From an uncultured Puniceicoccaceae bacterium (GTDB lineage Bacteria > Verrucomicrobiota > Verrucomicrobiia > Opitutales > Oceanipulchritudinaceae): DNA of 64,000 nucleotides. A program made the position numbers. This document shows positions 14,701-20,700 of the stretch, piece after piece (the stretch's first letter is position 1; the number at the start of each line of letters is the position of its first letter). The DNA is taken from the NCBI GenBank assembly GCA_963933835.1, contig CAWVVV010000001.1, positions 32,001 through 96,000 on the forward strand, written 5' to 3'.

Positions 14701-17700
14701 AGATCCCTTTCTTGGGAATCTCCATGAAACCGTCGAGCGCAAGGAGCGCGACGAGGCTGCTCGGAGTGAATGGGAGGACACTGGTGAGGCGCAGGGCCGA
14801 CTCGACGAACTGCTCGCGCAGCGCCTCTACGGGGAGGTTTTTGATACACAGCTCCCAGGGGGCGACCTCGATGGATCTTGGCGATTTCGCTTCACTCCGA
14901 AAATAAGCGATCTTAACGGCGATGACTACATTCGCTGGCCGTTCAGTGTGCGCTACCAATTCAACACCCCTCTCGAGGGTCAATTCGATCTGGGGATCTA
15001 CACCGCGAATCCGATCGAGAGTGGAAATGGGATCGGTTTTTACGAAATCAGACCCGGTCTAAAATACAGCATTCGGCACTTTCTCTCCTCGGAGTGAAAT
15101 ATCGCATTAGGACTGGGAACGGAGATTCCGATCGCCAGTCCCCCGCTGGAGCTCAGCGATGGTTTCGCGCGTTACCGCCCTTACGTTTCATTCAGCAAGG
15201 AATTGCACTCAGATCCGGAGCTGATGTTCTACCTCAGTCTCCAATACGAGGCCGTCGCCGATACCCCATTCTCAGCAAATCCAGTGATCCCTCAGCCACA
15301 AGACCGGGTCTTCGTATCTCCTGGCTTGATCTACTACCCTGGAGGGAATTTTCGCTACGCCGTTGAGTTTGAATACCGGACGAATGCTCTCGATTTGAGA
15401 GGGGGCATTGACCGTCCGAGGGGATACATCGGACCACAGACGCTAGAAGAGGTTCGTGCGTATGAGACGACCCACGAGCTTAGTTTCTATCCGAGCATAA
15501 CCTGGTTTCCCAGTCGCGAAACCCGCGAAGGCCTACGCATTCCGGGAAACTGGGACGTGAGCCTACGTCTCGACGTCCCGATCGTGGAAGAAACCGACGA
15601 AGACTTTGGCATCTCAGTTCGTTTCAAATGGTATTACAATTACCGCAAGCTGATCTATCGCGACCTTCGTCGACTTTTACAGCGCTTCGACTCGGAACCT
15701 TGAGGTCAGTAGGCGTGAAGCGTTTGCACCGTTAAATCTAGTTCGACGAGCCGTATAGGCCCGACGCCATTCTGACTGCGGTCGCACTAGGACGTAATCC
15801 CAAGGAGGAACTGGAGGTTGTTCGGGGTCTTGTTGATCCGGCCGATAAGCATTTCCATCGCATCGATTGGCGGAATGCCCTTCATCGCCCGGCGCAAGCT
15901 GTAGACCTTCTGCATCTCGTCGGTGTGGTAGATAAGCTCCTCTTTGCGCGTGCCACTCTTAGCCATTTCAATCGCTGGGAAGATACGCTTGTCTGAGAGA
16001 CCGCGGTCGAGGTGCAGCTCCATGTTACCGGTGCCTTTAAACTCTTCAAAGATGACTTCATCCATACGACTACCCGTCTCGACGAGGGCCGTACCGATGA
16101 TCGTGAGTGAGCCGCCTTCTTCAATATTACGCGCGCTGCCGAAGAAGCGCTTCGGCTTCTGGAGGGCATTGGCCTCAACACCACCCGAAAGGATTTTACC
16201 ACTGTTCGCAGCGAGGGCATTGTAAGCGCGAGCAAGGCGCGTAATCGAGTCGAGGAGGATGATCACATCCCGGCCGTCTTCGACCATCCGTCGCGCCTTT
16301 TCGATCACCATCTCGGCACAGTGCACGTGATTTTCAGGCGATTCATCAAAGGTGGAGGCAATCACTTCTCCATCCTTCAGCTGGCGCTTAAAGTCAGTCA
16401 CTTCTTCCGGGCGTTCGTCGATGAGGAGGACGATGAGGTGCGCCTCTGGCTTGTTCAGCAAAACGGCATTCGCGATCCCCTGCTGAAGGATGGTCTTACC
16501 TGTGCGCGGTGGCGCAACAATGAGGCCACGCTGGCCAAGCCCGACCGGCGTCAACAGATCCACGACGCGCAAGGCCATGTTATCCCACGCCACACTGGGG
16601 TCGGTTTCGAGCAGCAAGCGCTCGGTTGGATAGTAAGGAATCAGATCCTCGAAAGGTATAACTTGAAGGTTCTCCTCAGGCGCTTTGTCCATCAGGCTGA
16701 CGACCTTGAGAAGGTAGGGGCAACTTTCCTCAAGCCCATCCATGTCCTGTAAGTAGTCTGCAGGCGCGAAGAGCGCAGCGAGCACCTCATCGGCAATCTC
16801 GTCCTCTCGCGAATCATTCAGTGCGTCGCTAGATTGCTCACCGTCGACCTCACTTTGGGAGGCCCGGATTTGCTCCAGCGCGTCTGAAGGCAGAAGACTG
16901 CGTTTCGGGTGGAGCTGAGCCTGGATTAGGGTGCCACGCTTAATGCCGTATAGCTTCACAATCGACAACGGAACAAAGGTATTCGTCGGGCGCACACGGT
17001 AACTATCCTGCGCGTAAACGATCAGGCCGTAGCCGTCGGCAGTGGTTTCAAAGACACCTGTCGCGATGATCGGGCGCTTCGCAGCGTAGGCTGCTTTCAT
17101 GACGAGGTCGATGATCTCATCGCGCATTGGGGCCTGTTCGCTCACGACCCCGAACTCATCCTTGGCAACCTCTACAAGCTCGTTGAGTGGAAATGAGAAA
17201 AGGCGGTTGTAGTCAACGGGACCACCCGCAGCAGAGCCTTGGGCCTCCGCGAGCGTCTTCATATCTTCCGGCTTCTTCAGAAGATCGAGTTGTGGAAGCT
17301 CTCCCACCTCGATGACAAAGGTGTCCGAACTGCCAAAAAACTCGCCTGCGCCGGCTGGCTTTTTCGCACCACCACGGCGCGGTGGGTTCTTGTTGAAATC
17401 CTTCTTCTTCCGCTTCTTGTCGAAAGGCTTTTTCCTGTCCTGACGTCCGCCACGGCCACCGCCTTGGCCACCACCGCCTTGGCCACCACCACCGCCTTGA
17501 TTCTGCTGATTGTGGCGCTGCTTAGATTTGCCACCGCGGTCTTGGCGCTGAGGACCTCGACGCTCGGGGCGCTCAGAGCGTTCTGAGCGCTCAGCCGGCT
17601 TTGCCCTCTCCTCGTTCTGAGAGGAATTTGACCGAGCCTCCTCCTTTTGTCCTTTCGCCGGAGCGTCATCCTTTTCGGACGGCGGTGCGCCGACGCCTTC

Positions 17701-20700
17701 AGGCTTATCTTCAGGACTGGCTGAAAAACTCATAGGCACTTGCTCGCTGTCCGATTTCTTGAGCACTGGCGCAGCAGGTGGCTTAACATCCGTCGAGGCC
17801 ACCTTCGCGGAGGCTTCGTTGGTCGCAGCCCGCTTCCGGGTCGTTTTTTTTGCCGCGGTCTTGCGTGCAGCACGCTTCTTTTTGGCCGGCTTGGCTTCTT
17901 CTCCGGATGGGGAGGGCTCAGAAATTTCGTCGCTTAACATGTAAAAGTCTAAAACAGGTGTGAATCAGTCCCTTTTTGGGACAAGGATGTGCTCAAAAAT
18001 GTAATCAATTTGCTCCGCTAGGTGCGCTGCACTGCCGTTATTAACGATCACCAGATCTGCGAGTTCAGCCTTCTTATCGAGGCTCCACTGCTGGCTAAGA
18101 CGCTGATTGGCGTGCTCTTCGGACCAGCCGCGTCTTTCGAGACGTTGGCGCTGTTGCTCGGGTTCAGTAACGACACATATAGTAAAATCGAACGATGCTT
18201 GGAGGCCTTTTTCAAAAAGGAGAGGAATTTCTACAACAAGGCAATTGTGCCCAGTTCGTATTTCCTCTTCCCATTTTTGACGCACCAGAGGGTGGATCAA
18301 ACGCTCCAACTTACGGAGCTCCTTGGAATTAGAAAAAACGATAGAAGCGAGTTTTGACCTGTCAACCTTTCTACTTTCAGCAAAAATCGTCGATCCGAAG
18401 TCCCTCCGGAGGTCATCGATCAAGGCCTTATCTTCTTCGATAAGCGTCCGAACACAGCTATCACTGTCAAAAGTCGCCGCACCCTTGCCTTTAAACAACT
18501 CCAAGACCGTCGATTTTCCGCATCCGATACCCCCTGTGAGACCAATATTCACCCCGCCTATCCCGCGGTCTTGAAGAAAAAATGCAACTCTATGGTTAAG
18601 CTCGGGCGAGTTCGCACGATGGTAAGATTGACCAGAGGTCGAAAAACAGGCACTGTCCTCCCTTGGATGTCCCCATTAAAGACCACACCCACCTCCTTTA
18701 TGAGCCAACAGCAGCAACAGCTTGCGCACGCCCTTTTCTGCGGAATTGAGGGTACTGATTCGTCAGCTGTTGAGGACGCGCTCACTGAGATCGAAAACCA
18801 AGTTCTCGGTCCCGCTCAGACAACGGGGTTTCACAGCCAGATACTGGCAGACGTGATTGATCTGTTTAACGAGGGTTTCGCTGATAAACAGCCGATCGAC
18901 ACACCCTACCACAACCTTGAGCACACCCTACAGACGACCCTCTGCTTCGCTCAAATCTGTCTCAACTGGGAGCTGACTGCCGAGCAACCATCCATCACCA
19001 CGGAAGCCTTTCAAAATGGCCTCGCTGCCGCCCTCCTACACGACGTCGGCTACATGAAAGACGCTCACGACCCCGAAGGCTCGGGCGCGAAGCATACTTT
19101 TTGCCATGAGCTTCGCAGCTGTGATATAGCCACCGCCTATCTGAGCAATCTTGGATGGGACGCGGCCCGGATCGGCACCGTCTGCTCCATTATTTGCTGC
19201 ACGGGGCCCCTCGCTGACTTTAATTCAATCGAATTTGCCGACGACACCGCCCTACTCCTCGGACAAATGGTCTGCACCGCTGACTACCTTGGGCAAATCG
19301 CCGACCCCGGCTACGTCAGCAAAATCCCCGCCCTCTACCGAGAACTCAACGAGTCGGATCAATTCCGAAGTATCCCGACAGAGGACCGCAATTACGCCTC
19401 AGTCGGGGAGCTCTTCGAGGGCACAGACACCTTTTGGAAGACCTTCGTCAAACCGCGGCTAAGCGATGAATGCGGGGGCGTCTGTGAACTACTGACCAAC
19501 CGTGAGACCTCAGACAACGCCTACCTCACACAGGTCGAAGCGAATCTGAAGCTGATCGAAGAGCTGAACTCCACCGCTTCGAATTAGGTCTGCGCAAAAG
19601 GTCTTTTACTGAAAAGGGCCCCTCTTGGCACCCTAGTTGCCATGAGTTCGGCGTTTATCAGACGTGGATGAGGAAGTGAACGATCACGTCGAAACCCTCA
19701 ATACATTGCTTACGGGGCATGCCATGCAAAGAGGTAGCCAAACGACAACTGAGCAGAGCATTTAAATTAAACGATTGACCCCTTTCAGTTCACCCATGGA
19801 TGAGCAGGAAGTCTTAGCAGAGTTCTTTCCTTTGCGTGAAATGTGTTGTTCTGGAAACGTTAACCACGAAGAGCACGAAGGACACGAAGAGCTTTGGTTC
19901 TGATAAGACCCGTCTTACTAGGTGCGCGATCGCGGTCGTCTGGGGACAGACGACCCTACCCTAGGACTAGAGACGGCCTAGATAACACTGTAGTAGAAAA
20001 GCAGTTGGAAACCCACCTGCAAGACCACCCATGCGGCGCCTGCAGCGGCTAGATCATCGACGAGGACACCTTGGCCACCGGGGAGACTTTGCAGACGTTT
20101 GATACCGAAGGGCTTCGCGATGTCGAAGAGGCGGAACAGCGCGAAGCCGGCCAACAAGTAGGCGAAGGCCCATGGCGTGCCTGAGAGGGCTACTGGCCAG
20201 CCAAGAAAGACGAGTGGTTGGGCGACAAATTCATCGATAATGACTTCGCCGGGATCGCGTTTGCGGAGGCGAATTTCAGCCTGTTCGCAGATCGGCAGAG
20301 CGACGGCGACGAGGATGGCGCAGATCAAAAGCTGTGCCCAGAACGGCGCAGTGTGGAGGAACGCCATATAAAAGAGCACACCGGCTACGGAGCCATTGGT
20401 GCCCGGTCCTTTGCCCCAGAATCCGACGCGGCCAAGACAGGCCATGCCGATGATCCAACGGTCCGGAATCAGCGTCCAGAAAAGCATGCTGAAGATGTTT
20501 TTGTTCATCAAGCAGGAGCGAGCTTATGTGCAGGCGTGAAGACGACCCGCCAGTAGCGCCCAAAGTAGAAAGCGCCGGAGACAATTGTCAGGTAGGCCGC
20601 GTAGAAGAAGTAGAACATCCCGTTGAGCCAGACAAAGTCTGCCCAGAGGCTGAAGTCCCAGCCGGTCCACTGCGTAATGTCATGGGCAAACATAGGCTGC

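Follow-up and report, generated by a model that had tools for sequence, protein, structure and literature searches.

A long and a short Rho factor in an uncultured Puniceicoccaceae bacterium: a further example of the Rho pair of PVC bacteria

The window analysed in this study (a stretch of 64,000 nucleotides from the genome of an uncultured Puniceicoccaceae bacterium) contains a rho gene encoding a long protein, referred to here as the long form. It is preceded, 24 nt upstream and on the same strand, by coaE, with which it is probably co-transcribed; an identical coaE-rho order was found in G116, a genome of the same family. The positions of both genes, and of the regions distinguished within the long form, are presented in Table 1.

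Table 1. Genes and protein regions at the long rho locus (positions in the window)
Feature	Position	Strand	Basis
rho, long form ("Group A", Type 2)	15787..17940	-	717-aa ORF; NF006886 match
Basic, Gly-rich, low-complexity N-terminal extension, presumably disordered (residues 1-228)	17257..17940	-	Composition
N-terminal three-helix bundle (residues ~243-290)	17071..17214	-	AlphaFold model and weak phmmer alignment
OB-fold strands 1-4 with degenerate RNP1, DGYGLIVY (residues 291-347)	16900..17070	-	Pfam, E. coli Rho alignment, residue table
62-aa acidic insert in the OB fold (residues 348-409)	16714..16899	-	Alignment gap
Last OB strand, connector and RecA-type ATPase/translocase (residues 410-717)	15790..16713	-	E. 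coli Rho alignment, motor motifs
coaE (dephospho-CoA kinase)	17965..18552	-	Pfam CoaE, E 1.2e-44

The long form matches the curated Rho model NF006886 (PRK09376) in two pieces (472.5 bits over model positions 112-410, and 34.2 bits over positions 5-106), because the match is split by the insert in the OB fold. E. coli Rho chains are similar to it with an E value of 4e-114 and align to residues 243-347 and 410-711. A Pfam search identified ATP-synt_ab (residues 457-662) and Rho_RNA_bind (PF07497; residues 294-347), the latter stopping at position 53 of the 73 of the profile and scoring 27.0 bits; this value, like the 27.4 bits of the short form described below, lies at the gathering threshold of 27.

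Residues 1-228 have a composition (K32 G27 A23 E21 P21 S20 R20; net charge +18; 24/228 hydrophobic) that leads us to presume that they are disordered, and the Pfam search found no domain in them. The helix bundle that follows gave a weak phmmer alignment to residues 2-47 of E. coli Rho, and the Pfam domain Rho_N (PF07498) had no match in the long form. The bundle is present in the AlphaFold model of residues 228-717 (pLDDT 86.3), with helices at model positions 17-22, 25-36 and 46-59 in a block with pLDDT 87-93. Model confidence is high for the OB strands of the long and the short form alike. The last part of the protein (residues 410-717) aligns to residues 113-412 of E. coli Rho, and contains the P-loop, SGTRKEEL and all of the remaining Rho motor motifs.

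The interruption of the E. coli Rho alignment between residues 347 and 410 defines the 62-aa insert, which is located at a site corresponding to K105-A112 of E. coli Rho and is likewise opposite a gap when the two forms are aligned with each other. It carries a net charge of -15 and is modelled, with low confidence, as partly helical (pLDDT below 50 at model positions 142-173). No such acidic insert was found in 20 other long forms compared. G116 has a homologous insert of ~50 aa, so both genomes of family f1 (2/2), the only family where it was seen, contain one; the long form of family f12 has an insert of 7-8 aa at the same spot. The acidic insert of family f1 is possibly new. The closest published counterpart is the "RNP3 insertion" of Actinomycetota and PVC bacteria (Moreira et al. 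2024, NAR, PMC11347177; cited throughout from parts of the text, a table and a tree legend), which shares its position in the OB fold, before the ERY/RNP3 strand, and also accompanies the loss of the GFGF RNP1 motif. As described in those parts, however, it is basic and no longer than 20 aa.

A second rho gene is located on contig 4 (G000:C4:195752-196999; L002:1363-2610), where it forms a 415-aa ORF. Its product, the short form, is 40% identical to the long form (BLASTP, 167/419) and matches NF006886 with 440.1 bits over model positions 47-412, and both proteins exceed the curated cut-off of 315 bits. The start codon is probably that of Met39, giving a protein of 377 aa, since the only open frame of the same-family orthologue has 380 aa and aligns from residue 3. 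With this start the protein has no N-terminal domain and its RNA-binding domain begins within the first 25 residues, which is how a Type 4 Rho is defined. Counted from the start of the 415-aa ORF, it would be classed among the short 2d Rho proteins. The structure model of the short form (pLDDT 91.1) has OB strands from about residue 10, counted from Met39, and lacks the helix bundle; Foldseek ranks E. coli Rho (8q3n_A; TMq 0.93, 44% identity) first among its structural matches.

These results agree with the genome-wide survey's note on this DNA in that the genome encodes two diverged Rho proteins (40% identity over 419 aa), of which the long one carries a Lys/Arg/Gly-rich N-terminal extension and an insertion of ~60 aa in its RNA-binding half, and the short one lacks the helix bundle. 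The length of 415 aa given there for the short form is likely too great. The two genes had also been described as lying side by side; here they occupy separate contigs, and in family f4 a distance of 7-55 kb lies between them.

The fold and all motor motifs are common to both forms and E. coli Rho (PDB 1PVO, 3ICE, 8Q3N), from which the short form differs in the absence of the helix bundle, and the long form in its 228-aa extension and 62-aa insert. Both retain the P-loop, DERPEEVT, Walker B (LLDS), Q-loop, R-loop and arginine finger. The motor motifs are conserved across all ten groups compared, and together with those of the central channel they are strongly conserved. Residue roles (F62, F64, R66, D78, Y80, E108-Y110, Q-loop, R-loop and R366) are presumably as in E. 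coli Rho, and were mapped here by alignment. Thus, we take DERPEE to be the catalytic Glu/Arg valve, and F62, F64, R66, D78, Y80, E108, R109 and Y110 (E. coli numbering) to constitute the canonical primary RNA-binding (pyrimidine) pocket.

Six of these eight primary-binding residues are changed in the long form of the window relative to E. coli: it has F62Y, F64L, R66V, D78N and Y80F, and is without a clear ERY element. Among the nine long forms of this order and family f12, R66 and Y110 are retained in none, and position 64 is aromatic in two. The eleven short forms of the same groups all lack F62, F64 and R66, as well as E108-Y110; the RNP1 aromatics and R66 are kept in all 33 of the other short forms of the class. 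The apparent loss of the canonical primary-binding residues from both paralogues of this order, with all motor motifs kept, is possibly new. Such a degenerate pocket argues against classical rut recognition, but not against membership of the Rho family.

In a survey of Verrucomicrobiia, 119 of 151 genomes had at least two Rho matches. They include every one of the 19 genomes of the same order, compared with 98/130 from other orders, and in a larger sample 33 of 37 genomes of the order had at least two matches. The genomes with a single Rho cluster in 11 families (f10, 11/11; f11, 5/5; f20, 3/3; f32 and f41, 2/2 each; six families, 1/1 each). The earlier statement that nearly all genomes of the class have the pair is therefore too broad. 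Two matches were detected in 5/134 genomes of the other classes of the phylum: two of these cases represent one gene split over contig ends and three are true pairs. The pair is indeed rare in those classes, but it is not special to Verrucomicrobiia, since the same combination of long and short forms occurs in 31 of 61 sampled genomes of Planctomycetota; it was also found in one Acidobacteria MAG. Both 0.9-Mb genomes (G030 and G040) carry both forms, as had been noted, and complete genomes on a single contig also have the pair. Each form can also occur alone: the long form in many genomes, including whole families, and the short form in G229, even when probed with the long form of a close relative, and in G345 of Planctomycetota (these being draft assemblies).

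Rho pairs of this kind have already been described. The "Group B" proteins of D'Heygère, Rabhi & Boudvillain 2013 (Microbiology 159:1423; cited via PMC11347177) correspond to the "Type 4"/short 2d Rho of PMC11347177. In the table of the latter, Coraliomargarita akajimensis has a 554-aa 2d form and a Type 4 form of 377 aa, a length identical to that of our short form with the Met39 start, and pairs are also given for Nibricoccus and two Akkermansia species. As far as the cited parts go, eight Verrucomicrobiota genomes only were included, the second copy being filed as a "Rho-like ATPase" in two, and the legend and text of the tree place the PVC second copies in one cluster. The ideas of an ancient duplication and of hetero-hexamers are in print there for PVC bacteria and Actinomycetota, with reference to D'Heygère 2013. 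A lineage with two specialised Rho paralogues, or with a hetero-hexamer, is thus not the novelty that had been proposed.

The short form resembles the Group B/Type 4 proteins, as characterized in those sources, in (i) being the shorter of two Rho proteins and lacking the N-terminal helix bundle, (ii) retaining the catalytic and bicyclomycin-pocket motifs, and (iii) being partnered by a longer Group A Rho, as in other PVC genomes; in the genome studied here the partner is the Group A/Type 2 long form. It departs from the published account (PMC11347177, cited parts) in the loss of the RNP1 aromatics and R66 in this order and f12 (0/11). Relatives of the long form can be found among Type 2 Rho proteins with a disordered basic region, namely that of Bacteroides thetaiotaomicron (Krypotou et al., EMBO J 2026, PMC13269538; cited in part) and those of M. 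tuberculosis, M. luteus and B. fragilis (via PMC11347177). Unlike these proteins, as far as described in the cited parts, the long form has its basic region in front of the helix bundle (an "initial" region) and coexists with a second Rho. Because the pair has been described both in this group and in a neighbouring phylum, the window and contig-4 genes are a fresh example of the published long and short Rho pair of PVC bacteria rather than a new kind of system.

The best overall explanation, which we consider likely, is that this published PVC pair comprises a long Rho of canonical descent and a Group B/Type 4 short Rho with non-redundant roles. The window gene would be the canonical-descent Rho of the lineage, with a basic extension, three-helix bundle, OB fold and ring ATPase in that order, and the contig-4 gene the Group B/Type 4 Rho, reduced to the OB fold and ATPase. 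Both are probably active hexameric RNA translocases, because all of the motifs for ATP hydrolysis and RNA threading are kept. They would differ in RNA capture and not in the motor: the long form would bind RNA through its basic extension and bundle, and the short form through a bare OB fold. Within this order, RNA loading is unlikely to follow classical rut recognition, the pocket being degenerate in both forms, and may lean instead on the basic extension of the long form. Of the words sampled from the short gene, 67% occur in contigs from the marine RNA libraries of one study; contigs from the same runs lie on the long gene with 100% identity, and RNA-library contigs also cover part of coaE (18017-18310). 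This is a hint of expression, from a single study in which carried-over DNA is possible.

Provided that both forms are active, the arrangement we would expect, by a little, is that each builds a homo-hexamer of its own, the two rings differing in their targets or in how they are recruited; mixed rings seem distinctly less probable, and other arrangements would account for the small remainder. In a mixed hexamer, the long form would supply RNA capture, via its basic extension and bundle, in trans to short subunits. This proposal, which is in print (PMC11347177), is consistent with the long co-inheritance of the two genes, their retention in the 0.9-Mb genomes and the conservation, in both forms, of the nucleotide-site motifs at subunit interfaces. 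However, an obligate mixed ring is excluded for the single-form lineages, since each form occurs there alone, and rho is essential in a species possessing only a Type 4 protein (PMC11347177, cited parts). We regard mixed hexamers as doubtful.

The phylogeny bears on the origin of the pair. In the IQ-TREE phylogeny, a split with an SH-aLRT value of 96 lies between the canonical Rho, of whatever phylum, and a set of 46 rows. This set comprises the class short forms (all 27), three short forms of other classes, 13 of Planctomycetota, a single protein from Gemmatimonadota and another from Acidobacteria, and a Planctomycetota long form on a long branch. Every short form sampled from Verrucomicrobiota and Planctomycetota is included. 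The 44 long forms of the phylum all fall in a clade of their own (support 95), with no short forms. The grouping of the short forms was unchanged in a FastTree analysis of 229 rows. The survey's note had proposed a single ancient rho duplication in the ancestor of the class, followed by division of labour, as a class-special trait. The great age of the pair is upheld, in that the long- and short-form subtrees are congruent (13/25 splits in common over 28 genomes; Mantel r 0.43, with 0/2000 permutations as high), and the distribution of the pair (119/151 genomes of the class, against 3/134 of other classes) also fits the proposal. Yet the class short forms group with those of other phyla and apart from the long forms, the same architecture occurs in Planctomycetota, and the PVC second copies form one cluster in the published tree (PMC11347177). 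Constraining the short form to a within-phylum origin costs 68 lnL and is rejected marginally (p-AU 0.0355), for a group that was named after the tree had been seen and that contains long branches. A class-level duplication is thus unproven for the short form, and we consider the proposal of the survey's note, taken as a whole, improbable. According to the explanation favoured here, the short form and the second Rho found in roughly half of the Planctomycetota sampled would be orthologues. In most of Verrucomicrobiia the short form would have been passed down alongside the long form, and it would have been lost from, or never have arrived in, the cluster of ~11 families. Long forms evolve faster in the presence of a short form, which is possibly a new observation.

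It is equally improbable that the short form has a function other than termination, either poisoning or adjusting the rings of the long form, or acting elsewhere as a helicase on RNA or R-loops. Classical RNA capture by the short form of this order does look disabled, because the bundle and the equivalents of F62, F64, R66 and E108-Y110 are missing (0/11). Against this, most of these residues have also disappeared from the order's long form, so the loss is not specific to the short form; the strong conservation of the motor and central-channel motifs and the existence of short-form-only genomes count against it too. The separate contigs of the two genes, and a foreign-looking extra Rho in another genome (G041; 713.7 bits, on a 4.5-kb contig), might suggest that the second copy is degenerating, or that it reflects misassembly or contamination, but this is extremely improbable given the intact frame (72% identity to the same-family orthologue), a G+C content of 55.2% compared with 54.5% for the window, the congruent phylogeny and the second copies in single-contig complete genomes.

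A bolder extension of the favoured explanation, to which we assign a small chance only, concerns this order and family f12. Judging from the residues retained, both Rho proteins would lack the pyrimidine pocket and load RNA independently of rut, with RNA captured by the basic extension of the long form, and with the acidic insert peculiar to the family, next to the former pocket, imitating RNA within the protein or braking it; the short form would build a second ring, alone or mixed, and be recruited in another way, e.g. by riding RNA polymerase. If true, non-rut loading by both paralogues would make this a Rho system of two components that loads by a new logic.

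The genome of this uncultured Puniceicoccaceae bacterium carries two intact rho genes, old and co-inherited, whose products have complete motor motifs. As stated in the genome-wide survey's note, the two proteins are diverged: the long form (encoded in the window) and the short form (encoded on contig 4) share 40% aa sequence identity (167 of 419 positions; BLASTP). The locations of these genes and of the other loci discussed below are summarized in the table.

Location of the rho genes and other loci (G000, source genome; other G numbers, sampled genomes; C, contig; L, locus)
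Feature	Sequence	Position	Strand	Size or match
rho, long form	window	15787-17940	-	717 aa
ORF divergent from coaE-rho	window	18571-19587	+	338 aa
rho, short form (NF006886 match, six-frame search)	G000:C4	195890-196987		440.1 bits, model positions 47-412
ORF 3' of short rho	L002	2729-4096	+	>456 aa
Second NusG-family gene	G000:C1 (L302:1282-1812)	295379-295903	-	176 aa
Short form, G229 (same order)	G229:C7 (L160)	106531-107634		
Long and short rho, family f4	G055:C21	942-2174 / 9069-10130		
Long and short rho, family f4	G104:C1	1935825-1937054 / 1948844-1949902		
Third Rho, G041	G041:C42 (L006/L093)	2328-3563		434 aa, 713.7 bits
ATPase-only copy, G303	G303:C1 (L277)	41948-42793		
Short form, G345 (Planctomycetota)	G345:C170 (L297)	2131-3222		

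Pfam places the ATPase domain of the long form at residues 457-662 and the Rho RNA-binding domain at residues 294-347, the latter match ending at profile position 53 of 73. When compared with solved structures (phmmer), residues 243-347 align to residues 2-105 of E. coli Rho, and residues 410-711 to residues 113-412. Since the flanking residues align on both sides, residues 348-409 constitute a 62-aa insert, which agrees with the insertion of about 60 aa noted earlier in the RNA-binding half. The insert divides the match to the NCBIfam Rho profile NF006886 (472.5 and 34.2 bits in the six-frame genome search; cut-off 315 bits). It is acidic (net charge -15) and is missing in 20 other long forms compared; a homologous insert of approximately 50 aa, with common motifs, occurs in G116, the other genome of the same family (f1), where the gene order coaE-rho is also identical. 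The N-terminal extension is rich in Lys, Gly and Arg, as described (K32, G27 and R20 within residues 1-228), with a net charge of +18 and only 24 hydrophobic residues. A structural model of residues 228-717 (pLDDT 86.3) contains the three-helix bundle, which was missed by Pfam, and depicts the insert, with low confidence, as an excursion containing some helix. The ORF divergent from coaE-rho has no Pfam match and contains an HD-domain-like stretch (LHDVGYMKD); a similar ORF also flanks coaE-rho in G116.

The ORF of the short form is indeed 415 aa long; the length of the real protein is a different matter. The open frame of the same-family orthologue comprises only 380 aa, and the alignment starts at query residue 3, which suggests that the true start is probably Met39, giving a protein of 377 aa. 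The reported absence of an N-terminal helix bundle is borne out by the start of the profile match and by the structural model (pLDDT 91.1), which can be superposed on E. coli Rho with a TMq of 0.93, has OB strands from approximately residue 10 and shows no bundle. Short forms as a group have signature variants, namely the Q-loop G(S/G)GRTMSGG and a ten-residue stretch (sequence not shown); the present one belongs to the published Group B/Type 4 class. In the protein-cluster taxonomy of its relatives, organism labels are present on 2 of 10 representative clusters, both of them MAG labels. The ORF downstream of the short rho is common to 9 of the 30 loci examined (families f1, f2, f4 and f5); no Pfam match was found over the 456 aa searched, and the conserved neighbours gave no functional lead.

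The pair had been described as a class-wide trait of the Verrucomicrobiia that is missing in the other classes of the phylum. Searching 151 genomes of the class (at least 80% complete, source genome included) with NF006886 at E <= 1e-40 revealed at least two matches in 119, three of which have three, and a single match in 32. The latter cluster by family: they comprise all sampled members of f10 (11), f11 (5), f20 (3), f32 (2) and f41 (2), the one sampled genome of each of f25, f37, f38, f43, f45 and f49, and three isolated genomes from families whose other members have the pair. Although counted as single, the f37 genome (G103) actually encodes the short form and, at contig ends, pieces of the long form. 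The claim that both genes are kept even in very small genomes stands, as two genomes of 0.9 Mb retain both forms. The two rho genes of the source genome lie on different contigs; in family f4 they share a contig, separated by 7-55 kb and in many cases encoded on opposite strands. The third Rho of G041 (88% complete), of the typical form, lies on a 4.5-kb contig that is probably foreign to the bin.

A survey of 201 genomes of the phylum identified two Rho in 33 of the 37 genomes of the same order (Opitutales). Within this order, G236 has only the long form in the sequence searched (all but 8 kb), and G229, a draft assembly rated 100% complete, appears to have only the short form, the long form not being found even with that of a close relative as the query. 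No Rho was detected at E <= 1e-5 in G286 (f51) and G294 (f52), also of this order and rated 98-99% complete; in G294 even the usual weak ATP-synthase-type matches are missing. Among 134 genomes of other classes, 127 have one match, two have none and five have two. Two of these five represent one gene split over contig ends; true long and short pairs occur in G153, G156 and G273 (3/134). The 61 Planctomycetota genomes sampled include 31 with at least two matches, 29 with one and one with none, the second match usually starting at model position 43-61 (a few are weaker or start at 114-130). A second match was also observed in three Planctomycetota MAGs, one Acidobacteria MAG and one Ca. Udaeobacter MAG, starting at approximately model position 47-53 in four of them and comprising only the ATPase in G303. 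In G303, as well as in G340, G361 and G321, the second copy is an ATPase without the OB fold (model position 114-131 onward); that of G303 lies approximately 12 kb from a full Rho gene on the same contig. The Planctomycetota draft assembly G345 appears to contain only the short form. Given the 32 single-match genomes of the class and the pairs in Planctomycetota, the Rho pair is common in the class and mostly missing in the other classes of the phylum, yet it is neither class-wide nor special to the class.

A two-Rho lineage is not a new kind, since such pairs are already in print. Among 2730 genomes, Moreira et al. (2024, NAR, PMC11347177) counted 116 with at least two rho genes, the PVC group contributing 30, and distinguished a complete Group A from a shorter Group B without the N-terminal domain, following the names of D'Heygère et al. 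(2013). The Verrucomicrobiota are represented there by eight genomes: pairs are given for two Akkermansia species, Nibricoccus and Coraliomargarita (554 aa plus a 377-aa Type 4 protein), the second copies of Opitutus and Lacunisphaera are filed as 'Rho-like ATPase', and two Methylacidiphilum species have a single Rho. The same authors consider that their data suggest an ancient duplication, and propose that hetero-hexamers could provide the missing N-terminal function in trans. Experimental work on the two Rho of Akkermansia or Planctomycetota was not found in the limited library searched.

To place the two forms, a tree was computed from 117 sequences aligned over the OB fold and ATPase (379 columns; IQ-TREE 'quick', LG+C20+F+G4 by PMSF). 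Surplus genomes of densely sampled families were omitted, as were most of the 80 outgroups with names. These outgroups, and the entry to the Planctomycetota genomes, came from a scan of one of the 64 parts of the named-genome collection, which yielded mostly canonical Rho from many phyla. A split with SH-aLRT support of 96 separates 46 sequences from 71 canonical Rho; FastTree with all 229 sequences gave the same grouping. The 46 consist of (i) 27 short forms of the class, (ii) three of other classes, (iii) 13 Planctomycetota short forms, (iv) one Gemmatimonadota sequence and one Acidobacteria sequence, and (v) one long-branch Planctomycetota long form. The 44 long forms of the phylum constitute one clade (95), whose sister is a Chlamydiia MAG (96). 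Constraining all Verrucomicrobiota long and short forms to one clade cost 68.06 lnL (p-AU 0.0355), a marginal rejection, the group having been named after the tree was seen and long branches being involved. The Planctomycetota short forms are paraphyletic around those of Verrucomicrobiota. The short form is thus shared with Planctomycetota, and the tree, at this marginal level, does not place its origin within the class; it may have come down from a PVC ancestor, some lineages losing it, or the class may have acquired it through an old transfer. In the FastTree analysis, a Rho from a record titled Alphaproteobacteria bacterium MAG (L249) falls inside the Verrucomicrobiota short-form clade, which may reflect a mis-binned contig or transfer.

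Within the class, both genes have travelled together: in 28 genomes the long- and short-form subtrees have 13 of 25 splits in common, and their patristic distances correlate (r 0.43; none of 2000 permutations as high). The proposed ancient duplication with division of labour is upheld as regards an old, co-inherited pair, and not as regards a duplication inside the class. Genomes with a short form have the more diverged long forms: the path from the node that unites the long forms of the phylum has a median length of 1.03 in them (21 of 28 above 0.5) and of 0.43 in genomes without it (1 of 16 above 0.5). As the sequences are related, this is a pattern rather than a test.

The motor motifs (P-loop, DERPEEVT, LLDSxTRLxRAxN, Q-loop, R-loop, FKGTGNME and SGTR(K/R)EE) were found in all ten groups compared. 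The residues that we take to form the primary RNA-binding pocket of Rho (E. coli numbering) differ sharply between groups. All eight are present in 70-71 of the 71 canonical Rho of other phyla. The class short forms from outside this order (n = 33) retain F62, F64, R66 and Y80 in all cases and D78 in 31, and the E108-Y110 element in none. F62, F64 and R66 are absent from all 11 short forms of Opitutales and f12. The nine long forms of the same groups have neither R66 nor Y110; D78 occurs in one and an aromatic residue at F64 in two. At the site of E. coli DGFGFLRS, the long form of the source genome reads DGYGLIVY.

Because both forms are kept in two 0.9-Mb genomes and each occurs alone elsewhere, we predict that they are active, non-redundant ring translocases, in separate or in mixed rings. 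Their sequences suggest that they differ in RNA capture, and that neither uses the classical pocket in Opitutales. Without that pocket, RNA loading in this order would probably lean on the basic extension of the long form, by analogy with the Type 2 Rho of Bacteroides and mycobacteria.

RNA-library contigs hint at expression of both genes, DNA carry-over being an alternative source. In four marine RNA libraries of one study, contigs contain 25-67% of the words sampled from the short gene; three of these runs yielded contigs 100% identical to the long gene (8 of 16 depth bins spanning it), and contigs of coaE were likewise obtained from three runs. No such contigs lie on window positions 15000-15690 and 18350-19000, which carries no evidential weight.

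The source genome also encodes a second NusG-family protein, in which an NGN domain was recognized but, at the threshold used, no KOW domain. Its gene, outside the window, is isolated, with a SpoU methylase gene on one side and leuS on the other; the canonical nusG is located in tuf-secE-nusG-rplK-rplA (L301). This protein was dropped as a candidate partner of the short Rho, as no link between their distributions was seen: a query that cannot tell canonical NusG from paralogues matched 85 of the 151 class genomes, including 11/11 of f10 (one Rho) and 1/20 of f6 (two Rho).

Rho is generally regarded as a nearly universal terminator present in a single copy. Lineages with two diverged Rho, even at 0.9 Mb, constitute a natural experiment on the separation of RNA capture from the motor, and the findings point to specific proteins for biochemical work in relatives that can be cultured, such as Akkermansia, Opitutaceae and Planctomycetota. 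The observation of two diverged Rho is confirmed with corrections, its interpretation is partly supported and its kind was already known; what is new here is descriptive, i.e. the survey, the origin that the short form has in common with its Planctomycetota counterparts, the degeneration of the pocket in both copies of one order, the acidic insert and the faster evolution of long forms that accompany a short form.
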